Below are positions 2,732-51,160 of a stretch of DNA of 64,000 nucleotides, piece after piece. Positions within the stretch are counted from its first letter, which is position 1. The number at the start of each line of letters is the position of its first letter. The notes beneath the pieces are model-generated. The model worked only from the letters and a program-made list of their open reading frames with translations. It was not told the origin of the DNA and did no database searches. Source of the stretch: Elusimicrobia bacterium GWB2_63_16 (GTDB lineage Bacteria; Elusimicrobiota; Elusimicrobia; Elusimicrobiales; UBA9959); NCBI GenBank assembly GCA_001799715.1, contig MGTZ01000036.1:54226-118225 (forward strand), given 5' to 3'. The translations under genes were made by a program, and so were the position numbers.

Positions 2732-2782
2732 ATTGACATGTCAATGGGGCCCACTTGACAAATCGCCCATATCTGCTATAAT
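2732..2782 (+). promoter_or_regulatory. sigma70 promoter with upstream palindromic operator (copy 1)
   Basis: ATTGACATGTCAAT palindrome (2732-2745); TTGACA (2755-2760); 16-nt spacer; TG-C-TATAAT (2777-2782). Same layout at 42371-42421. Confidence 0.85.
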
Positions 2783-2793
2783 ATGATTGCAGC

Positions 2794-2961
2794 GCGGTGT
2801 GGTGCGGTCGTTGCTTGGTGTAGAGCAGTGCGGTTGCGGTGTCCCGCCCTTTTGGCTCGGTACGGTGCAGTAGCGGTGCGGTCGTTAGCAGTGCGGTAGC
2901 GGTCGCAGACAGACGCGGTGTAGCAAGCGGTGCAGCGGTGTGTGTCCCAAAAGGGCGGGAC
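2794..2961 (+). repeat. GCGGT/GCAGT pentamer-rich 5' leader closed by a 15-bp long-range stem
   Basis: 11 GCGGT and 3 GCAGT in 2794-2939; GTCCCGCCCTTTTGG (2841-2855) is the exact reverse complement of 2947-2961. Confidence 0.8.
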
Positions 2962-2977
2962 GTTTACTTAAGAAGTA

Positions 2978-3055
2978 TCCGATAATAGCAAAGCCGGCTA
3001 AAGCCGGCGGCGCAAAGCTGTGACCCGTTATGTTCACGGGGGTCAGGCTGCCGAA
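2978..3055 (+). ncRNA. c-di-GMP-I (GEMM-I) family riboswitch aptamer, A20 (c-AMP-GMP-type) variant, copy 1
   Basis: AAUAGCAAA - P2 GCCGGC/UAAA/GCCGGC - GGCGCAAAGC - P3 GACCC...GGGGUC - AGGCUGCCGAA matches the GEMM-I consensus layout. Confidence 0.88.
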
Positions 3056-3099
3056 GAAAGAACCGACCGGTTTCGTGCCGGCGTTGCGGAACGGATTTA

Positions 3100-3175
3100 G
3101 GCCGTTTCCGCTGTCTTCGGGGTATCAGCCCAGTACCGGGTTGAGGCGAAGAGAGCGGAAACGGTCCTTTTTTTT
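3100..3175 (+). terminator. Intrinsic terminator of the riboswitch expression platform
   Basis: GGCCGTTTCCGCT (3100-3112) pairs with AGCGGAAACGGTC (3154-3166), followed by T8 (3168-3175). A competing segment GCGGAACGG lies at 3086-3094. Confidence 0.75.
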
Positions 3176-3298
3176 GGTTCCGCGGCCTGGAGGAAGGATG
3201 TCTTCTACCGAGCGGGGGATCTGGTTTGTAAGGGCGTGCCAGAGGCGCCTTGTTCTCGCGCGCCCGGCCGGTGGCGCCCTGTCATGGCTTTTTAATGT

Positions 3299-3326
3299 TT
3301 GCGAAACAATTAATTTATATTATAAT
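3299..3326 (+). promoter_or_regulatory. Candidate second sigma70 promoter downstream of the terminator
   Basis: TTGCGA (3299-3304), 16 nt, TATAAT (3321-3326) in an AT-rich patch. Confidence 0.45.
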
Positions 3327-3395
3327 GGTTTAATATCCGTGCTTTGCCGGGAGAAAATTCTTCCCCGGCAAGGCCTGGCTGTATTTTGTTTGCCT

Positions 3396-4028
3396 ATGCC
3401 GAAACTGATTTTATTGATAATAATAGCGGCCTCTACCGCGGCTTTCGCCGCTGACGCGGCGGCGCAGGACCGCGGCGCCGCGGAAAGCGGCTTTGCCGAC
3501 AAGGATTTCCGCAACCGCAGGAAAGCCCTGGAAAGCCTCGGCGAAGTGAAAGAGCCGTGGAAGATGGACCTGCTGAAAAAGTCCCTCTCGGATGAGGACC
3601 CCGTTATCAGGGAAAAAGCCGCGCGGCTGATCGGCAAGTCCAAGGACAAGGCCGCCTACAAACTGCTCACCGATTCCCTCAAGTCTTCCGACAATGACAC
3701 GCGCCTGGGCGCGATAGACGGCCTGCGCGATCTTGGCGACAAGCGGGCCGCCGCGCCCTTGGCCGCCCTGCTCTCTCATCCGGACCGGAATACCCGCTGG
3801 AAGGCGGCCGAGGCGCTTGGCTCGCTCAAGTCGGACAATGGCGTGGCCGCCCTGCAGAAGGCCGCCGCGCAGGATAAGGACGAGTTCGTCAGGAAAGCCG
3901 CGGTGGAGAGCCTCGGCAAGATAGGTTCGCAGCGGGCCCGGACGGCGCTGAACGCGCTGCGCGCCGGGGCCGACAAGCGGCTGGCCGGCTGGGCCGGTAA
4001 CGTGCTGAAGGCGATGGGCGCCAAGTAA
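3396..4028 (+). CDS. Secreted HEAT-repeat (PBS-lyase-like) protein
   Basis: ATG 3396 gives a signal peptide (MPKLILLIIIAASTAAFA); repeats of type D-x-x-x-R-x-x-A-x-x-x-L-G. The track start at 3030 lies inside the riboswitch. Confidence 0.85.
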   Translation: MPKLILLIIIAASTAAFAADAAAQDRGAAESGFADKDFRNRRKALESLGEVKEPWKMDLLKKSLSDEDPVIREKAARLIGKSKDKAAYKLLTDSLKSSDNDTRLGAIDGLRDLGDKRAAAPLAALLSHPDRNTRWKAAEALGSLKSDNGVAALQKAAAQDKDEFVRKAAVESLGKIGSQRARTALNALRAGADKRLAGWAGNVLKAMGAK

Positions 4029-42370: not shown

Positions 42371-42421
42371 GTTGACATGTCAACCCCCTCCCCTTGACAA
42401 AGCCATTTAATCTGCTATAAT
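42371..42421 (+). promoter_or_regulatory. sigma70 promoter with upstream palindromic operator (copy 2)
   Basis: GTTGACATGTCAAC (42371-42384); TTGACA (42394-42399); 16-nt spacer; TG-C-TATAAT (42416-42421). Confidence 0.85.
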
Positions 42422-42464
42422 ATTAATGCCGTAAATCTGTAACGAGTTTGTAATGCAGTAGTGT

Positions 42465-42543
42465 TACGATAATAGCAAAGCCGGTGAAAACCGGCGGCGC
42501 AAAGCTAAGACCCGCTAAGTGAGCGGGGGTCAGGCTGCCGAAA
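42465..42543 (+). ncRNA. c-di-GMP-I (GEMM-I) family riboswitch aptamer, A20 variant, copy 2
   Basis: CGAUAAUAGCAAA - P2 GCCGGU/GAAA/ACCGGC - GGCGCAAAGC - P3 GACCCGCU...AGCGGGGGUC - AGGCUGCCGAA. Confidence 0.9.
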
Positions 42544-42546
42544 ACA

Positions 42547-44163
42547 ATGAAACGCAATCTTTGTATTGCCTTTGCCCCCTTGGCTATATGGGCTGAAACG
42601 AAGCGTGTTATACGCTTCAGCCTCGCCATGGGGTTTTTTATTGCCCTTTCGGCGGCGACTGCCCTGGCCCAGGGCGGCGGCCAGCCCGGCGCCTTCATGA
42701 GCTACGGCGCCGGCGCGCGCGGCCTGGGCATGGGCGGCGCCTTCTTCGCGGTGGCCGACGACGCCTCCGCCTCCTACTGGAACCCCGCGGCCCTCACCCT
42801 GCTCGAGCGCAAAGAGTTCACCGCCATGCAGGCGACCCTGTTCGAGCAGACCACGCTTAACTTCTTCACCTACGCGCACCCTACCAGCACCAAGGGCACC
42901 TGGGCCGTCAGCATGACCCAGCTGCAGTCCACCGGCTTCGAGAAGATCTCCATCACCGCCAACCCCGGCGGCGACGAGATCATAGACATCAAGACGCTCG
43001 GCACTTTCGACAGCACCGAGCGCGCGCTGGCCTTCTCCTGGGGCCGTGAGGTTTCCGACAAGCTGGCCTTCGGCATCATGGCCAAGAACATCTCCCGCAC
43101 GCTGGACACCTCCGTGGACTCCTTCAACGCCATCGACATAGCGATGCTAAACAAGTTCTCCAAGACCTACCGCGCCGCGATCGGCATCCAGAACGTCTTC
43201 TCCATGGCCTCGGGCGATACCGAGGACAAGCTGCCCCTGACCCTGAAGTTCGGCCAGGCCCTGAGCCTTTTCAAGGGCAGCCTGCTGTTCGGCTTCGACC
43301 TGAACAAGCCCCAGGGTTCCTCCATGAACTGGCGCTTCGGCGGCGAGTACTGGCTGATGTACTGGGCCGCGCTGCGCTTCGGCGTGCAGGGCGCCCCCGA
43401 GATCCAGGAGGCCGATTTCGGCCTCGGCATCAAGTACAAGAACCTCGGTTTCGACGTGGCCCAGGGCGTGCACGCGCTGGGTTCCACCACCCGCTTCTCC
43501 GTGACGCTGCGCATGGGCCAGAGCAACAAGGCCAAGCACGACCGCGAGGTCCGCGAGCTGGTCCGCCAGGCCCTGCAGTACTTCAAGTCCGGCTACTTCA
43601 GCCGCGCCATGGAGAAGCTGCGCGCCGCCATGGACGCCGACCCCGGCAACCCCGAGATCCGCCGCATGGTCACCCGCCTGCAGGGCGCCATAGACTACGT
43701 GCCGGACGCCACGGGCGGCGACGAGGTGCCTACCCTGACCCGCCGCGGCATCATCTCCTACGTGGACGGCAAGGACCTGAAGGCCTCCGTGAACGTGCTG
43801 CGCCACGCCTTCAACAAGGACCCGAAGAACGACCGCCTGCTCTCCCTGCTGAACATGGTGGAGCGCGAGGCCGGCGTGAGCGAACTGACCCGCAAGCCCG
43901 AGGGTCCCGAGATCTTCACTTACATCGACCAGCGCACCTACGACGCCCGCCAGGCCATCTACGACGGCAAGTACGACCTGGCCATGAAGCGCGCCCAGGA
44001 CATCCTGGACCTCGAGCCCAACAACGAGACCGCCCTCGAGATCATGGGCAGCTCGTTCTACCTGATGGACCAGAAGGAGAAGGCCAAGGTCATCTGGGAA
44101 AAGGTCGTGGAGATCAACCCCAACAACACGATGGTCAAGAACTTCCTGCGCCAGGTGAAGTAA
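42547..44163 (+). CDS. PorV/PorQ-family outer-membrane beta-barrel with C-terminal TPR repeats (start codon uncertain: 42547 or downstream)
   Basis: GAGARGLGMGGAFFAVADDASASYWNPAAL motif of the PorV/FadL-like family, alternating beta-strands, then helical TPR-like repeats (ALQYFKSGYFSRAMEKLRAAMDADPGN...). Confidence 0.85.
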   Translation: MKRNLCIAFAPLAIWAETKRVIRFSLAMGFFIALSAATALAQGGGQPGAFMSYGAGARGLGMGGAFFAVADDASASYWNPAALTLLERKEFTAMQATLFEQTTLNFFTYAHPTSTKGTWAVSMTQLQSTGFEKISITANPGGDEIIDIKTLGTFDSTERALAFSWGREVSDKLAFGIMAKNISRTLDTSVDSFNAIDIAMLNKFSKTYRAAIGIQNVFSMASGDTEDKLPLTLKFGQALSLFKGSLLFGFDLNKPQGSSMNWRFGGEYWLMYWAALRFGVQGAPEIQEADFGLGIKYKNLGFDVAQGVHALGSTTRFSVTLRMGQSNKAKHDREVRELVRQALQYFKSGYFSRAMEKLRAAMDADPGNPEIRRMVTRLQGAIDYVPDATGGDEVPTLTRRGIISYVDGKDLKASVNVLRHAFNKDPKNDRLLSLLNMVEREAGVSELTRKPEGPEIFTYIDQRTYDARQAIYDGKYDLAMKRAQDILDLEPNNETALEIMGSSFYLMDQKEKAKVIWEKVVEINPNNTMVKNFLRQVK

Positions 44164-44630: not shown

Positions 44631-46574
44631 ATGAAAAGGCTTTTCGCCTCCCTCGCGCTCGTTATGAGCCTGTGGGCGCCCCGGGTATCTGCCCAGAGCG
44701 CCGCGCTCGATAATCCCATGATGGAGACCTCGCTGATGCAGAAGCAGGACTCCATGCGCCGCGAGGCGGAGACCAAGGTCAAGAAGGAGATCCTCGACCC
44801 CATCCTCGGGGCCGACAAGTCCTTCGTTTTCGCCGACGTCGAGCTGGAGGTCATCTCCAAGAAGGCCGAGCAGAGCAAGGAAGGCCTGGGCGTGATGCAG
44901 AAGTACAAGGAGAAGGGGGGCAGCGACGAGGCGGCCGATACCGACTTCATCCTTCCCGGCATCCCTAAACCCAAGAGCGTGCTGGGCGGCGAGAACAAGC
45001 GCCCCGAGGCGGCCCAGGGCCAGCAGGCCCAGCAGGCCAAAGGCGTGCAGGAGATACGCTACGGCCTCGAGACCGAGATCACCCGCTTTCAGCTGACCGT
45101 CATCCACGACGAACAGCTCTCCCCGGCTTCCATAGCCCTGGCCCGCGAGCGCATAGACGATTTCCTGGTGCCCTACAAGATCCGCAAGACCGGCGCGCCC
45201 ACCGTGGTCTTCAAGCCCACCAAGTTCAAGGCCGGCAATCCCCTGGACGACCTTAAGAAGCCGTCCGTGTACCTGCCCCTGCTTTACGCGCTGCTGTTCC
45301 TGCTGCTGCTGCTGTTCCTGTTCGGCCCGCTGTGGGGCTTCTTCCGCAAGTACATCAAGGCGCTGATGGCCAAGCCCGGCGCCGAGGTGAACATAGAGGA
45401 CAAGCGCGAAGAGGGCGGGGGAGGGAGCGGCGAGGACGAGGGAAAGCAGGAGACCGAGGGGCACCAGAGCATAGATATGAACTTCCTTCAGAAGGAGGAG
45501 GAGAAGAAGGAAGACGAGGACGACCTTATGAAGAAATTCGAGCCTTTCACCTATTTGAACGAGGAGAACCTCAAGCGGCTGATTTATCTGTTCCTGCTCC
45601 GCAAAGAGGACCCGTGGGTCATAGCGGTGGTGCTGAGCTACCTCAAGCCCGACCTGTCCCGCCAGGCCCTGAGCATGCTGCCGGTGGAGATGCAGAGCCG
45701 CGTGGCGCTGGAGGCCCTGACCGTGCGCCAGGCCACCCGCGAGCAGATAGAGGCCATCGACAAGGATATCCGCGAGAACGTGGATTTCGTGATGGGCGGC
45801 ATAGAGCGCCTGATAAAGATGCTCGACGACTCCGACCCGGCCACCCGCAAGAACATCATAGAGTACCTCAAGACGCAGAAGCCCGACGTCTACGCCAAGG
45901 TGCGCCAGATCGTGCTGATGTTCGAGGATATCGTAAATTTCGCCGACCGCGACATGCAGTCCATCATCCGCAACCTCAACAACGAGGACGTGGCGAAGGC
46001 TCTGGCCAAGGCCGACCCGGCCATCGTCAACAAGTTCTTCACGAACATGTCGCAGGGCGCCGTGAACTCCGTCAAGGAGATCATGGAGTACTCCGGCGAG
46101 ATCAGCCTGGCCCAGTCGGACGAGGCGCAGATGAAGATCCTGGACGCCATCAAGACGCTGGAGTCCGAGGGCAAGATCGCCTCGCGCGGCGGCAATTCGC
46201 AGGAAGTCTATATGATAGAGGGGGGGGAGATGTCCTCCGGCGACGAGCGCCGCAAGAAATTCGAGAGCCTGTCCGCTTCCGCCCCGGCCGCCGCCGGCCC
46301 CACGCCCGAGCAGCTGGAGCAGGCCAGCCAGTACGCCGCCGCCGGCGCCAATATGTACAACCAGGGCCAGGTGCAGGAGAGCCTGCAGTACCTGGAATAT
46401 GCCTCCTCGCTGAACCCCGGCGACGCCTCCACCTGGCAGTACCTGGGCGCGGCCTATTACGGCCTGCAGCGGGTGGACGAGGCGGTGGCCGCCTACGAGA
46501 AGTACGCGTCCCTGTCCGGCGACCCGGCCGCCTCCGAATGGCTGGCCGGCTTCAAGGCGAGCGTAGGCAGATAA
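44631..46574 (+). CDS. Signal peptide - FliF-like ring domain - TM - FliG middle/C-terminal domains - TPR fusion protein
   Basis: FliG motifs EDPWVIAVVLSYL (EHPQ-like), GGIERLIKML, LMFEDIV (MFxF-like), FFTNMS, EAQMKILDAIKTLESEGKI. FliF RBM3-like ILDPILG..FVFADVEL and ITRFQLTVIHD; one TM at ~45267-45345; C-terminal TPRs. Confidence 0.85.
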   Translation: MKRLFASLALVMSLWAPRVSAQSAALDNPMMETSLMQKQDSMRREAETKVKKEILDPILGADKSFVFADVELEVISKKAEQSKEGLGVMQKYKEKGGSDEAADTDFILPGIPKPKSVLGGENKRPEAAQGQQAQQAKGVQEIRYGLETEITRFQLTVIHDEQLSPASIALARERIDDFLVPYKIRKTGAPTVVFKPTKFKAGNPLDDLKKPSVYLPLLYALLFLLLLLFLFGPLWGFFRKYIKALMAKPGAEVNIEDKREEGGGGSGEDEGKQETEGHQSIDMNFLQKEEEKKEDEDDLMKKFEPFTYLNEENLKRLIYLFLLRKEDPWVIAVVLSYLKPDLSRQALSMLPVEMQSRVALEALTVRQATREQIEAIDKDIRENVDFVMGGIERLIKMLDDSDPATRKNIIEYLKTQKPDVYAKVRQIVLMFEDIVNFADRDMQSIIRNLNNEDVAKALAKADPAIVNKFFTNMSQGAVNSVKEIMEYSGEISLAQSDEAQMKILDAIKTLESEGKIASRGGNSQEVYMIEGGEMSSGDERRKKFESLSASAPAAAGPTPEQLEQASQYAAAGANMYNQGQVQESLQYLEYASSLNPGDASTWQYLGAAYYGLQRVDEAVAAYEKYASLSGDPAASEWLAGFKASVGR

Positions 46575-46579
46575 CTGGT

Positions 46580-46712
46580 TGTGCCCGGCATGGGGCTGCC
46601 CTCTCCGGGTACGCTCGGCCACACCGTGGCCTCGCTCTTTCACTCAGGCTCGGCGCTTACGCAAGCCTCGCCTTCGCGAGGCCCCTGCGAGGGCAACCCC
46701 CTGCCGGACACA
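46580..46712 (+). repeat. Structured intergenic repeat family, copy 2
   Basis: Same core as copy 1; closing stem GGGGCTGCCCTC/GAGGGCAACCCC with compensatory changes. Confidence 0.88.
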
Positions 46713-46842
46713 GCGGATAAAGAGCACCCTTGCCGGTCCCCCATGGGGGATATAAAGTTGTTAATAATCTTGTAACGAAAGTGAAACCGCGTTTTTTTAG
46801 AATATAGTGGCAGCAAGACGGACTGAGCTTAACCTTAAATTT

Positions 46843-49239
46843 ATGTCAGACGAGAAGAAAATACCTAAGATGCCCCCGCTTCCCCCGGGGATGCTCAAGC
46901 CTGGTATGCCGCCGGCCCCTCCTGCCGGCAGGCCTCCTCTGCCGTCCATGCCTGGCATGCCGCAGGCCGGTTTCCCCTCCATGCCCCAGGGCTTCGGCCA
47001 GCCGGCCGCCGCCCCGCAGCCCGCCGCCAAGGACGACGCCGAAGAGCGCCGCCTGCAGGAAGAGAAGGACAAGCTGGAGCGCAAGATCGCGGACATGGAG
47101 AAGCTGCTGTCGGCCGAGAAAGAGAAGGCGCTGCTCGCCACGCTGAAGAACCAGCAGGACGAGGCTCTCTCCTCCCGCGTGGAGTCTTCGCTTAAAGATA
47201 TACAGGACAAGATGCGCCGCGACCGCCGCGACCACGAGGTCGAGGAAGAGCGCCTCACGCTGAAATCCAAGATCAAAGAGATGGAGACCCGCCTCGCGCA
47301 GGAGCGCGAGACCTGGATGACCACGCTCAAGAACCAGATGTCCGAGCGCGAGGTGCAGGGCCGCGACGTGGAAGGCCACTTCATCTACAGGCTCCAGGAG
47401 ATGGAGCGCCGCTGGCTGGACGAAAAGGCCCAGTGGCAGAAAGAGATCACCTCCCGCGAGGAGACCATCCGCTCGCTCAAGTCCGCCGCCGAGAAGCTGC
47501 GCGACACCGAGGACGAGCTGCGCAAGATCTCCCTGGAAAAGACCATGTCCGACCGCGAGGTCTCCCGCCTGCGCGACGACGTGGCCCGCGCCGAGCGCGA
47601 GAAGGCCTCGGTCGAGACCTATATCAAGATGATCCCCGAGAAGGAGCGCGAGATCGCGGACCTCAGGAGCGAGAACATCTCGCTGCGCGGCCGCGAGGAG
47701 AAGGCGCGCCTCGAGGAGAAGCACAACGCCGAAAAACAGGCTTTCGAACTGGAGAAGATGCAGAAGGAGATAGGCCGTCTGCAGGCCGAGATCGGCGCCA
47801 TCTCCGACCGCAAGAACGAGGAGAAGAACGAGGCCCTGCGCAAGCAGGCCGAGCGCTACGACGCCTCCCTCCTGGAGAAGGAGAAGGCCCTGGCCGACGT
47901 GAACGGCGAGAAGGTGCGCGCCATCTCCGAACTGGTCAAGATCAAAGGTTTCGTGTCCCGGGTGCAGGCCATCAACGCCGTGCTCGACAAGGAACGCGGC
48001 CAGCTGAAGCTCGAGAAGATGCAGCTCGCCCAGAACATGGCCGCGCAGCTCGAGGAGATACGCCGCCAGAAGCAGGAACTGGACACCATCAAGGCCGCCC
48101 ACCAGAGCGAGCTGGAAGCCCAGGCCACCGGCTACAAGGCCGAGATAGCCAGGGTAAAGAACGGCTACGGGGCCGAACTGGCCGCCAGGCACGCCGAGGA
48201 ACTGGCCGAGGCCTCCCGCAGGAACCAGGAGGAACTGTCCAGGCTGGCCGCCGTGCACCAGGCCGAACTGGCCAACGCCGCCTCGTCCCACCAGGCCGAG
48301 CTGTCCAGGCTGGAATCGATACGCCGCGAGGAGGCCTCCAGGGCCGCCGCGGCCCACCAGGCCGAACTTACCAAGCTCGCCGACGAACGCCAGGTGGAAG
48401 TATCCAAAATTTCGGCCGACGCCCAGGCCGAGGTCGCCAGGATTTCCGCCGAGCGCCAGGCCGAGCTGGACGCCAAGGTCTCCCAGCTGCGCATGCAGTA
48501 CGAGTCCTCCTCCGAAGAGGAGAAGACCGCCGTGCGCAAGCAGCTCGAGGCGGCCCACTCCGCCCAGCTGGCTACCGCCCGCGCCGAAGCCTCCGCCGCG
48601 ATGGATTCGCTGGTCAGGCTGGAGGCCGAGAACCGCCGTCTCGCCGCCGAGAGCGCCGTGTTCGAGAAGACGATCGCCGCCAGGACCAAGGATTTCGAGG
48701 ACAGGCTGGTCCGCGCCGAGGCCGAGGCCAAGCGCCGCGACGAGCAGGCCTCCCGCGCCGAGGCCCAGCTCTCCGAGTCCCTGGCCCGCGCCGCCGAAGC
48801 CGCCAAGGCCGCCCAGGCCGTGGAGACGGAACGCCAGCGCCTGTCGGCCGAGTACGCCGCCCTGCGCGAGAAATATTCCGCGATAGAGTCCCGCCGCGCC
48901 GCCGAGGAGGCCGAACTGGCCCGCCTGACGGACAGCTTCAAGGCCCAGGCCGAAAACCTCAGGCTGGAGAGCGAGAACCGCACCCGCTTCGAATCCGAGC
49001 TGCTCTTCCTCAAACAGAAGGTGCAGCAGATGGAACTGCAGGCCCAGGAGACCGCCTCGCTGCTCGACGACGAGCGCAACGCCGCCGCCGCGCAGGCGCA
49101 GGCCGCCGCCGACCAGGCCGCCGCCGACGCCGCCCGCCTGGCGGAGGCCTCCGCCGAGCTGGAGAAATACCGCTCGCTCGAGGCTTCCTTCGCGGAGCGC
49201 CTGAAGTGGGCCATCAAGGGTAAAAAACAGGCGGAGTGA
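46843..49239 (+). CDS. Long coiled-coil protein with N-terminal proline-rich segment
   Basis: ATG 46843 (MSDEKKIPKMPPLPPGM...), preferred over GTG 46807; ~740 aa of E/K/R/A/L-rich helical repeats; no TM. Confidence 0.85.
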   Translation: MSDEKKIPKMPPLPPGMLKPGMPPAPPAGRPPLPSMPGMPQAGFPSMPQGFGQPAAAPQPAAKDDAEERRLQEEKDKLERKIADMEKLLSAEKEKALLATLKNQQDEALSSRVESSLKDIQDKMRRDRRDHEVEEERLTLKSKIKEMETRLAQERETWMTTLKNQMSEREVQGRDVEGHFIYRLQEMERRWLDEKAQWQKEITSREETIRSLKSAAEKLRDTEDELRKISLEKTMSDREVSRLRDDVARAEREKASVETYIKMIPEKEREIADLRSENISLRGREEKARLEEKHNAEKQAFELEKMQKEIGRLQAEIGAISDRKNEEKNEALRKQAERYDASLLEKEKALADVNGEKVRAISELVKIKGFVSRVQAINAVLDKERGQLKLEKMQLAQNMAAQLEEIRRQKQELDTIKAAHQSELEAQATGYKAEIARVKNGYGAELAARHAEELAEASRRNQEELSRLAAVHQAELANAASSHQAELSRLESIRREEASRAAAAHQAELTKLADERQVEVSKISADAQAEVARISAERQAELDAKVSQLRMQYESSSEEEKTAVRKQLEAAHSAQLATARAEASAAMDSLVRLEAENRRLAAESAVFEKTIAARTKDFEDRLVRAEAEAKRRDEQASRAEAQLSESLARAAEAAKAAQAVETERQRLSAEYAALREKYSAIESRRAAEEAELARLTDSFKAQAENLRLESENRTRFESELLFLKQKVQQMELQAQETASLLDDERNAAAAQAQAAADQAAADAARLAEASAELEKYRSLEASFAERLKWAIKGKKQAE

Positions 49240-49324
49240 ACGCGCCCCCGGAGGGGAAGCAGGGCGGGGGGAACCAGGGTTGCCGCCGCCCGCGCTTATT
49301 GGCAATAAAGTATAATTTAAGACG

Positions 49325-49549
49325 ATGATCAAGCTCGAAAAACTCAACGGGACCATGGTGGTGGTGAACGCCGAACTCATCGAAACGATAGAGGCCGGCC
49401 CCGACACCGTGCTGAACCTGGCCACCGGCAACCGGTACCTGGTCAGGAACCCGGTGGACGAAGTGATCGCGCTGATCGTGGAGTACAAGAAGAAGGTCTA
49501 CGCCGAGCGGCGCTGCGTCAACCCCGTCGAGGGCTTCGAGAAAAAGTAA
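49325..49549 (+). CDS. flbD: Flagellar FlbD family protein
   Basis: MIKLEKLNG...VVNAELIETIEAGPDTVLNLATG.RYLV....DEV; directly upstream of motA as in flbD-motA-motB operons. Confidence 0.9.
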   Translation: MIKLEKLNGTMVVVNAELIETIEAGPDTVLNLATGNRYLVRNPVDEVIALIVEYKKKVYAERRCVNPVEGFEKK

Positions 49550-49564
49550 GGAGACCCTGCTTTC

Positions 49565-50347
49565 ATGGATATAGGTACATTAAGCGGCATCGTGGTGTTC
49601 ATGGGCTTCGTGCTGGGCTCGGTCTACCTGCAGGAGGGTATGGCCGGCTTCAAGCCCTTCATGAACATCGAGGCCTTCCTCATCGTCATGGGCGGCACGT
49701 TCTGCGCGCTGCTGGTCAATTTCCCGCTCTCCGCCGTGATCGGCTCAGGCAAGGTGCTCAAGAAGGTGCTGACCACCAAAGGCGAGGACACCTCCAAGCT
49801 GGTCACCACCTTCGTCTCGCTGTCGCAGAAAGCCAAGAAAGAGGGTTTCCTGGCGCTGCAGGGCGACGTGCAGGCCATCGACAACGACTTCCTCAAGCGC
49901 GGCGTGCAGCTGGTCATCGACGGCGCCGACCACGAGTTCATCCGCAACATGCTCGAGACCGAGATCGACTTCATCCGCGAGCGCCACAAGAACGGCCGCG
50001 AGATCTTCAACGCCCTGGGCACCTACGCCCCGGCCTTCGGCATCATCGGCACGGTGCTCGGCATGATCCTGATGCTTTCCTCCATCGACGACGTGGCCCA
50101 GGTGCCGCGCCGCATGGCCCTCGCCCTGGCGGCCGCCTTCTACGGCCTAGCGTCCGGCTACTGGCTGTTCATGCCCATGGGCGGCAAGCTCAAGAGCCGC
50201 TCCGACGAGGAGCTGTTCGTCAAAGAGATCATCATCCGCGGCGTGCTGCTGCTGCAGAGCGGCGCCACGCCCAGCGTAGTGGAGGCCAACCTGAAGGCCT
50301 ACCTCGACCCCGCCGCCCGCGCGGCCATCAAGAAAGAAGGCGCGTAA
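49565..50347 (+). CDS. motA: Flagellar-type stator protein MotA/PomA
   Basis: AFLIVMGGT, KAKKEGFLAL, FLKRGVQLVIDG, YAPAFGIIGTVLGMI, FYG...PMGGKL, GVLLLQSGATP; SD AAGGAG. Confidence 0.95.
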   Translation: MDIGTLSGIVVFMGFVLGSVYLQEGMAGFKPFMNIEAFLIVMGGTFCALLVNFPLSAVIGSGKVLKKVLTTKGEDTSKLVTTFVSLSQKAKKEGFLALQGDVQAIDNDFLKRGVQLVIDGADHEFIRNMLETEIDFIRERHKNGREIFNALGTYAPAFGIIGTVLGMILMLSSIDDVAQVPRRMALALAAAFYGLASGYWLFMPMGGKLKSRSDEELFVKEIIIRGVLLLQSGATPSVVEANLKAYLDPAARAAIKKEGA

Positions 50348-50356
50348 GGCTCTCCT

Positions 50357-51160
50357 ATGGCCCTCAGAGTAAAAGGCATGATCCCGGAGGACGACAGGCG
50401 CGTGGCGCCCGTCGGCGAACCCGCGCCCCCGTGGATGGTCAACTACGCCGACCTGATGACCGAGCTGGTCTGCTTCTTCGTCATCCTGTACGCCCTGTCC
50501 GCCGCCCTCAACAAGGACATGCAGAAGGCCCAGCAGGAAGTGCAGGAGATGATCAAAGAGGGCAAGATGGCCGGCCAGGTGCAGATAGACAAGGAAGGCA
50601 TGCGCATCACGCTCGAAGAGCAGAGCCAGATGGCCTTCTTCGAGAGCGGCAAGGCCGACCTGACCGACTCTATGCGCGAGCAGATGGGCAAGCTCTCCCC
50701 GGTGCTGCTCAAGCTGGCAGAGAAGCACGACATCGTGGTGGAAGGCCACACCGACAATATCCCGATCTATACCAAACAGTTCGCCTCCAACTGGGAGCTG
50801 TCCACCGCGCGCGCCACCAGCGTGGTGAAATCCATGCTGGAAGACAAGTTCGCCCCGAAGCGGCTGTCGGCCGTGGGCTACGGGGAATACCATCCCATAG
50901 TGCCCAACGACAGTCCGCCGAACCGCAAGAAGAACCGCCGCGTGGTATTCTTCATCAAGAACAATCCTTATCCCGACCCGACCGGCCCCCCGGGGCCTGA
51001 CGGCAAGCCCCTCCCGGTTGCGCCGGAAGGCGGAGCCCCGGCCGTGCCCGAGCAGGCGCCGGCCGCGCCGGAAGGCGCCGCCGAACTGCCGGCCGGAGAG
51101 GTTCCCGCCCCGGAGACGCCCGCCCCGGCGGGAGACGCGCCCGCGGAAGCCGGGGAATAA
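50357..51160 (+). CDS. motB: Flagellar-type stator protein MotB/PomB with OmpA-like peptidoglycan-binding domain
   Basis: WMVNYADLMT TM motif with the conserved Asp; VEGHTDN, NWELSTARA, GYGEYHP, NRRV; Pro/Ala tail. Confidence 0.95.
   Translation: MALRVKGMIPEDDRRVAPVGEPAPPWMVNYADLMTELVCFFVILYALSAALNKDMQKAQQEVQEMIKEGKMAGQVQIDKEGMRITLEEQSQMAFFESGKADLTDSMREQMGKLSPVLLKLAEKHDIVVEGHTDNIPIYTKQFASNWELSTARATSVVKSMLEDKFAPKRLSAVGYGEYHPIVPNDSPPNRKKNRRVVFFIKNNPYPDPTGPPGPDGKPLPVAPEGGAPAVPEQAPAAPEGAAELPAGEVPAPETPAPAGDAPAEAGE

Follow-up and report, generated by a model that had tools for sequence, protein, structure and literature searches.

A GEMM-I riboswitch with an adenine at the specificity position precedes a giant-gene locus in Elusimicrobia and is a candidate sensor of 3',3'-cGAMP

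In the genome of Elusimicrobia bacterium GWB2_63_16, a stretch of 64,000 nucleotides (contig MGTZ01000036.1, positions 54,226 to 118,225; the entire stretch is referred to as the window, and all coordinates are counted from its first letter) contains, at 2977-3055 of the forward strand, an element, denoted copy 1, that we confirm as a genuine, conserved riboswitch aptamer of the GEMM-I fold, predicted to bind a cyclic dinucleotide. The nucleotide at its specificity position, which corresponds to G20 of the Vc2 aptamer, is an adenine, and the same adenine is retained throughout a large clade of relatives. The chances appear about even that 3',3'-cGAMP (cyclic GMP-AMP), sensed selectively or beside cyclic di-GMP (c-di-GMP), is the likeliest physiological signal of copy 1.

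The whole 64-kb window was compared with Rfam 15 using cmscan, and RF01051 (c-di-GMP-I, that is, GEMM-I; gathering threshold 35 bits) matched 2977-3055 over the complete model (positions 1-87; 57.3 bits, E = 1.4e-8), which confirms the aptamer that a first-pass annotation, made from the sequence alone, had placed at 2978-3055. RF01051 has two matches in the window, both on the forward strand, namely, copy 1 and a twin at 42464-42542 (copy 2). In the alignment to the model, the G at model position 11 (Vc2 G20, directly 5' of GCAAA) falls on A2987, and the text reads GAUAAU-A-GCAAA; both this adenine and the UAAA loop of P2 had been read correctly in the first pass. The aptamer consists of the following parts.

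2977-3055, forward strand: GEMM-I aptamer, copy 1 (57.3 bits with RF01051, 86.9 bits with the lineage covariance model described below; covariation)
2987, forward strand: A at the specificity position equivalent to Vc2 G20, directly after U2986 (RF01051 alignment, relatives)
G2988-C3013 and C2989-G3012, forward strand: junction pairs (alignment to GEMM-I)
2993-2998 with 3003-3008, forward strand: P2, GCCGGC arms around the loop
2999-3002, forward strand: P2 loop UAAA, non-GNRA (read from the sequence)
3014, forward strand: adenine equivalent to A47 (alignment)
3016-3049, forward strand: P3 (aptamer fold)
3046-3057, forward strand: aptamer 3' end GGCUGCCGAAGA, the 'A' strand, comprising the base of P3, CC and the tail; complementary to 3114-3130

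Because A47 is retained (the strand reads CGCAAAG, not CGCGAAG), the pocket triplet of copy 1 is, by alignment, A20/A47/C92, identical to that of the Geobacter GEMM-Ib aptamers. By sequence, GEMM-Ib is recognized by an adenine at the Vc2-G20 position (A14 in Gs1761), here A2987. The assignment to GEMM-I as such is supported by the score, by P2 and P3 together with the covarying GCAAA...CGCAAAG...CC junction, and by the location in a sense-strand 5' leader with an expression platform. The CC in GGCUGCCGAAGA is expected to pair with a G of the ligand and with G14, the pairing C being assigned by homology to C87 of the Cd1 riboswitch. No canonical P1 was detected between the aptamer flanks beyond two pairs, C2980-G3053 and G2981-C3052. 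The resemblance of the 3' end to Geobacter aptamers, also proposed in the first pass, holds as far as the letters go (GGCUGCCGAA, 3046-3055, against AUGCCGAAA in the Geobacter pilM aptamer) but is not diagnostic: UGCC occurs also in Cd1 and in 11 of the 41 orthologs with G20, where this form has G rather than A, and three of these carry the full GCUGCCGAA. Other Rfam families were considered and rejected. The c-di-GMP-I-GGC family (RF03167) gives copy 1 50.9 bits, below its threshold of 59, and copy 1 reads CGCAAAG rather than CGCGAAG; the weak matches to VA RNA and PK-BYV are far under threshold.

Relatives were collected by two routes: alignment of homologs of the PorV/TPR protein encoded after copy 2 yielded 80 orthologous loci, one per GTDB species, and homologs of the HEAT-repeat protein encoded after copy 1 yielded 12 loci orthologous to copy 1 (HEAT-protein identity 44-94%). 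The lineage covariance model detects 94 aptamers at the expected places and none elsewhere in 1.08 Mb. Across the 18 pairs of these 94 aptamers, 98.2% of the cells are standard pairs, and double compensatory changes are present in 14 pairs; none of 500 shuffles reaches the observed pairing values, and no slid register comes close. Covariation was examined with RNAalifold as well, and the junction letters and all pocket nucleotides are invariant among the relatives. Thus, with 94 aptamers and strong covariation, the copy 1 element is beyond chance. The UAAA loop of P2 is not a defect: the 12 orthologs of copy 1 have UAAA (6), CAAA (4), GAAA (1) or GUAA (1), that is, UAAA or CAAA is kept in 10 of the 12.

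Several peculiarities of the lineage were observed along the way. Nearly all 94 Elusimicrobial aptamers have GGCGCAAAG where the Rfam consensus has GACGCAAAG (A43 to G in Vc2 numbering), and GAC persists in most of the deepest outgroups, namely, L081, L082, L086 and L080 (second aptamer). Tandem GEMM-I aptamers precede the PorV/TPR gene in two loci, one with A20 and the other with G20 in L080 (1305-1409 and 1601-1727), and both with G20 in L077 (122-214 and 419-508). In L048 (5863-6003), an A20 aptamer carries an insertion of about 45 nucleotides (nt) within P2, in an otherwise G20 lineage.

Position 20 is occupied by A in 53 and by G in 41 of the 94 aptamers, and never by C or U. Both copies in the window have A20, as do all 12 orthologs in the copy 1 set. 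In a neighbor-joining tree of the downstream PorV protein, copy 2 falls within a monophyletic group of about 40 species, all with A20; the sister group has mostly G20, with A in L043/L083, L067 and L048, and the outgroups have G, with the A-plus-G tandem in L080. At least four changes of state between A and G are required on this tree, a count that is approximate, being taken from a neighbor-joining tree of a single protein. The adenine also comes with particular neighbors. In all 53 A20 aptamers the nucleotide before it is U, whereas the one before G20 is C in 28 cases, A in 9, U in 2 and G in 2. At the base of P2, a G-C pair is present in 40 of the 53 A-class aptamers, as against C-G in 39 of the 41 G-class aptamers. 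Given that position 20 is only A or G, that A is retained across an entire clade, that the coupling to U19 is strict and that the change recurs, A20 is, judging by these comparisons, under selection, with a reproducible local signature.

In Geobacter, an adenine at the G20 position defines the cGAMP-binding GEMM-Ib aptamers; its partner in the complex is the adenine of cGAMP, and a preference for cGAMP of more than 1000-fold is seen in many of these aptamers (PMC6140456; PMC6456294). In copy 1, the adenine would make the pocket competent for 3',3'-cGAMP. Selectivity is another matter. The first-pass annotation had taken A20 as predictive of cGAMP sensing, and this does not hold for A20 by itself: the Vc2 G20A mutant binds c-di-GMP with a dissociation constant of 53 nM and cGAMP with 120 nM, and Cbe 1-2, an A20 aptamer found in nature, favors c-di-GMP (30 nM, compared to 463 nM for cGAMP; PMC6140456). 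A stably protonated adenine explains this bispecificity, and A20 is necessary, not sufficient, for selective binding of cGAMP over c-di-GMP (PMC6140456). Position 20 has been described as a factor in selectivity, not as a hard filter, and the lower part of P2 is reported to tune the selectivity between the two ligands (PMC9262584).

Apart from these affinities, several observations weigh against cGAMP as the signal of copy 1. At the junction, copy 1 has the GC/GC pairs of Vc2, unlike the CU/GG of pilM, and no G20 aptamer that would require discrimination was seen in the same genome, both aptamers of the window having A20. The remaining such observations concern synthesis of the messenger. Hypr GGDEF enzymes combine Ser or Thr with GGDEF (PMC6456294), so we looked for Ser or Thr at GacA position 348 plus GGDEF, or, alternatively, for a DncV-type enzyme. 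No GGDEF gene is present in the window or in the orthologous loci. On the same contig, about 8-10 kb past the window end, lie two adjacent, overlapping GGDEF genes (L137 20494-22148). The complete GGDEF domain there has the motif NDTFGHQAG-D followed, after 23 residues, by GGEEF, and it also has an RxxD I-site, that is, the features of a canonical diguanylate cyclase. The second gene runs past the end of the sequence read, and its N-terminal 104 amino acids (aa), used as a query, matched fragments only; in a related strain (L138, L139), this gene is interrupted after 80 codons by an insertion sequence element with an rve transposase. No cGAMP synthase was found in about 100 kb around the locus. 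From its gene content, the organism very likely makes c-di-GMP.

The principal competing explanation is that the switch senses c-di-GMP and that A20 is an affinity-lowering or bispecific variant in an organism that lacks cGAMP signaling. We regard this as quite possible, if short of an even chance. The nanomolar affinities of Vc2 G20A (53 nM) and Cbe 1-2 (30 nM) for c-di-GMP, with the protonation of the adenine (PMC6140456), are in its favor, as are the canonical GC/GC junction pairs of copy 1 and the Asp/GGEEF cyclase encoded on the same contig, and the G20 of the orthologous aptamers in sister lineages implies that the ancestral signal was c-di-GMP. However, a change from G to A that is always accompanied by U19 and that recurs or persists in several lineages, in about 40 species, is not readily expected of mere affinity tuning, which could be achieved in many ways other than A20, and in Geobacter this change marks cGAMP sensors (PMC6456294). 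Readings other than cGAMP responsiveness and a plain or bispecific c-di-GMP sensor merit little probability, at the very most. One of these holds copy 1 to be a decaying, non-binding relic or a sensor of some other ligand, in which the UAAA loop and the missing tetraloop receptor (the positions of the 11-nt receptor in the Rfam consensus are deleted in P3) break the folding. It is highly improbable, considering that UAAA or CAAA is kept in 10 of the 12 orthologs with all pocket nucleotides invariant, that the covariation is strong, and that the match to the GGC variant family fails, with A47 retained.

Copy 1 is embedded in a predicted transcription unit that includes a promoter, a long leader and a putative expression platform, followed by a second promoter-like element and the genes.

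2733-2744, unstranded: palindrome TTGACATGTCAA, candidate operator, just upstream of the -35 box (from the sequence; the same at 42372-42383)
2755-2782, forward strand: sigma-70 promoter, TTGACA and a TG-extended TATAAT spaced by 16 nt (all 12 consensus positions matched)
2785-2961, forward strand: structured, GCGGU-rich 5' leader, conserved (folding, ortholog comparison)
3063-3083, forward strand: hairpin P4 (CCGACCGG...CCGGCG), conserved; covariation in L091 (GUCCGA/UCGGGC) and L088
3086-3111, forward strand: small hairpin GCGGAACGG/CCGUUUCCGC, sequestering the terminator's 5' arm (L087 and L130 show a compensatory change)
3100-3175, forward strand: intrinsic terminator with a U8 tract at 3168-3175 (fold z = -5.6)
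3114-3130, forward strand: switching strand 'T', UCUUCGGGGUAUCAGCC, pairing with 3046-3057 or 3138-3152
3299-3326, forward strand: second promoter-like element, TTGCGA-16-TATAAT, AT-rich (conserved in 10 of 12 orthologous leaders)
3345-3372, forward strand: hairpin GCCGGG...CCCGGC after the second promoter-like element (covariation; conserved in 10 of 12 orthologs)
3396-4028, forward strand: first downstream gene, encoding a HEAT-repeat protein of 210 aa with a signal peptide (open reading frame (ORF), domain content)
4033-42312, forward strand: giant ORF of 12,759 aa (C-terminal 100 aa FlgD_ig/T9SS-CTD-like)

The terminator comprises a basal stem of 13 base pairs (3100-3112 with 3154-3167) and inner stems (3114-3119 with 3147-3152 and 3126-3131 with 3138-3143). 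In most of the 11 orthologs it is kept, with compensatory changes and a tract of U6 to U8; the tract is degenerate in L134 and L089. Strand T, which can pair either with the 3' end of the aptamer or within the terminator, is unusually conserved: its variants CAGCC, UAGCC and UGGCC in the orthologs are precisely those transitions under which wobble pairs with the invariant strand of the aptamer persist, and the terminator partner covaries. At a transcript length of 3135, the minimum free energy (MFE) structure contains the helix between T and the aptamer, which encloses P4 and the small hairpin. An alternative switch suggested by MFE folding, a four-strand exchange between P2 and P4, was rejected as it is not conserved in L088 and L091.

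With moderate confidence, we interpret copy 1 as a transcriptional OFF switch of the Cd1 type, in which the ligand causes termination. This sign is favored by the logic that copy 1 shares with Cd1, with an antiterminator built on the ligand-pairing C and a terminator that acts as the thermodynamic sink; in Cd1, the ligand-pairing C is taken up by the antiterminator, and thermodynamics favors the terminator (PMC9262584). In the absence of ligand, T (3114-3130) would invade the aptamer 3' end (3046-3057), enclosing P4 and the hairpin at 3086-3111, so that the 5' arm of the terminator would stay sequestered and RNA polymerase would read on to the HEAT and giant genes. With ligand bound, the aptamer 3' end would be locked and T would pair with 3138-3152; the hairpin would then zip into the 13-bp basal stem, and transcription would end at U8 (3168-3175). 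Two folding results count against this sign. At full length, the terminator fold reaches -98 kcal/mol as against about -64 kcal/mol for the antiterminator, and at lengths 3125 and 3145 the aptamer remains intact in the MFE structure and T spans its two flanks, which would fit an ON switch.

The first-pass annotation had placed the riboswitch upstream of the giant gene. The position is right, but both the terminator and the second promoter-like element intervene before the HEAT and giant genes, and this element could drive these genes independently. The reading we prefer is that the riboswitch modulates read-through into the operon of the HEAT and giant genes, to which it would be coupled through the terminator. 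In an alternative arrangement, the region from about 2789 to 3175 would act chiefly as an independent, structured small RNA of about 390 nt, the riboswitch would set its 3' end or stability, and the genes would be driven from 3299-3326. The 180-nt structured leader upstream of the aptamer, conserved with compensatory changes, would fit such an RNA, as would the strong terminator directly after the aptamer region and the retention of TTGCGA-16-TATAAT in 10 of the 12 orthologs; there is also a precedent, in that the Vc2 riboswitch, according to a preprint, governs the stability of an upstream small RNA (bioRxiv 10.1101/617340). Nevertheless, the order of aptamer, terminator, HEAT gene and giant gene is syntenic in all orthologs and copy 2 of the same module directly abuts coding sequence, and we consider a predominantly stand-alone RNA unlikely. 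The 276-aa HEAT ORF that some pipelines predict, starting at 3198, was rejected: its extension runs across the conserved promoter-like DNA, and 3396 is where the signal peptide begins.

The promoter and the leader have conserved features of their own. TTGACA-N16/17-TAnAnT precedes nearly all 94 related aptamers, and TTGACATGTCAA lies, identical, about 10 nt upstream of the -35 box in both riboswitch promoters of the window. The pattern TTGAC-NN-GTCAA is found upstream of 43 of the 53 A20 aptamers; in many loci of the G20 clade, the palindrome overlaps the -35 box itself. The palindrome could serve as an operator bound by a shared regulator; a few kb upstream lies a gene for a LuxR/GerE-type response regulator (L001). 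The leader forms a long-range stem of 15 base pairs (2841-2855 with 2947-2961) that encloses the invariant GCGGUCGCAGACAGACGCGGUG, and this closing stem shows five compensatory pairs among 10 orthologs. GCGGT occurs 11 times in the 176-nt leader compared to 104 times in the whole 64 kb. No Rfam family matches 2785-2961, and the leader is a candidate for a new RNA motif or a protein-binding leader.

Copy 2 lies directly before the next gene.

42464-42542, forward strand: twin GEMM-I aptamer, copy 2, with a promoter at 42394-42421 (60.4 bits with RF01051, 100.2 bits with the lineage model)
42547-44163, forward strand: PorV/PorQ-family plus TPR gene (NCBIfam PorV_fam, 113.5 bits, cutoff 90)

In copy 2, A20 corresponds to A42474, and P2 is capped by a GAAA loop. 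The PorV/TPR gene starts with an ATG at 42547, at a distance of 5 nt from the aptamer; across about 48 loci, the PorV/TPR frame is open from 0-2 nt past the aptamer, with the ATG 2-8 nt after CCGA. A terminator-like hairpin followed by U6 (42576-42639), with abundant covariation among the orthologs, is located within the first 31 codons of the gene, so that the signal peptide's Gly-Phe-Phe is encoded by the same U-tract; the 5' arm of this hairpin resembles the 5' strand of P3. An OFF switch in which blocked ribosome loading leads to premature termination would explain this double coding. The module of promoter plus aptamer apparently was duplicated within one Elusimicrobiales clade, giving copies 1 and 2.

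The genes around the two aptamers suggest a function at the cell surface. Upstream of the copy 1 promoter, an S41 peptidase is encoded at 1608-2723; it is identical on Rifle groundwater metagenome contigs and in the NCBI metagenome-assembled genome (MAG) GCA_001799645.1. The synteny of the S41, HEAT and giant genes recurs in relatives. For the giant protein, Pfam is almost empty, apart from a weak Big_13 match and the C-terminal FlgD_ig/T9SS-CTD-like domain; related MAGs encode orthologs, one of 12,795 aa in L130 and another with 8,834 aa or more in L134, and the N-terminus found no relatives when compared with GTDB genomes. The homologs of the PorV/TPR gene all come from Elusimicrobia/Elusimicrobiales MAGs. 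Farther downstream, the region 44631-51160 encodes a protein with FliG_M/FliG_C and TPR domains (647 aa), an 810-aa protein without a family match, and then MotA/MotB; no other flagellar genes were found in the window. From this domain content, the FliG-like/TPR protein and MotAB look like a non-flagellar rotor and stator set beside a PorV-family gene. The proposal of the first-pass annotation that the locus serves surface adhesion or motility thus gains plausibility from the T9SS-CTD-like giant, the PorV-family gene, the FliG-like/TPR protein and MotA/MotB, and the locus plausibly encodes a surface-adhesion or gliding-type motility machine. The parallel that had been drawn to Bdellovibrio, where cGAMP controls gliding motility, is correct (PMC9140294).

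The GEMM-I fold and the GEMM-Ib aptamers of Geobacter were known already; what appears new here is the GEMM-Ib pocket signature in Elusimicrobiota and the G/A polymorphism across orthologs. We found no published record of a GEMM-I riboswitch with this pocket signature in Elusimicrobiota. To our knowledge, riboswitch-based cGAMP signaling has been documented essentially only for Geobacter and its relatives, and we know of Hypr GGDEF enzymes mainly from lineages of the Deltaproteobacteria type and one Acidobacterium. Tentatively, an Elusimicrobiales clade of about 40 species might have rewired an ancestral c-di-GMP regulon to 3',3'-cGAMP through the change of G20 to A together with U19, a change repeated several times elsewhere in the phylum; as part of the same tentative scenario, the rewired regulon would comprise the giant T9SS-type surface protein, the PorV-family protein, the FliG-like/TPR protein and the MotAB stator. 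If so, Elusimicrobiota should possess an undescribed cGAMP synthase, and cGAMP would control a non-flagellar machine for surface motility or adhesion outside the Proteobacteria. The same orthologous riboswitch with G20 or A20, depending on the lineage, is a natural experiment on the evolution of specificity or affinity in a single slot. Should the A20 clade sense cGAMP, the range of the messenger would extend to an uncultivated phylum, with a link to an adhesin and motor locus that is very large and unexplored; should it sense c-di-GMP, genome annotation that relies on the A20 'signature' calls too many cGAMP riboswitches.

Among the known systems, the Geobacter GEMM-Ib aptamers (for example, pilM, pgcA [Gs1761] and Gm0970) share with copy 1 the common GEMM-I fold with A at the G20 position and, downstream, an intrinsic terminator followed by cell-surface genes. 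Of this set, only pilM, an experimentally studied cGAMP switch of G. metallireducens, was compared by sequence (taken from the supplement of PMC9262584). It reads AAUA, with U before A20 as in copy 1, and also retains A47 and the pairing C. The differences are that the hosts belong to different phyla, Desulfuromonadota and Elusimicrobiota; that the pilM junction is CU/GG rather than GC/GC, and copy 1 is without an obvious P1 helix; and that the pilM terminator directly overlaps the 3' strand of the aptamer (an ON switch), whereas copy 1 has the relay strand T in the terminator loop, in an OFF-like design. Furthermore, unlike in the Geobacter systems, no Hypr GGDEF enzyme was identified here in about 100 kb, and the binding of cGAMP is a prediction from the sequence. 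The Vc2 G20A mutant and Cbe 1-2 of Clostridium beijerinckii resemble copy 1 in having A20 in an otherwise canonical pocket (GCAAA...CGCAAAG), and in each case the host is not known to make cGAMP; in contrast to both (Cbe 1-2 being compared by description only), the A20 of copy 1 is clade-wide, recurrent and strictly coupled to U19. The c-di-GMP-I-GGC family, RF03167, is a member of the same clan and scores copy 1 nearly as high as RF01051 does, but it differs in having G at the A47 position. Finally, Cd1 of Clostridioides difficile, the c-di-GMP-I OFF switch of the flgB operon, lacks a stable P1 and has a motility target, like copy 1, and in both, the antiterminator forms on the ligand-pairing C and its neighbors while the terminator is thermodynamically favored. 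Cd1 differs in having G at the specificity position, a GAAA loop with its receptor and an expression platform of unrelated sequence.

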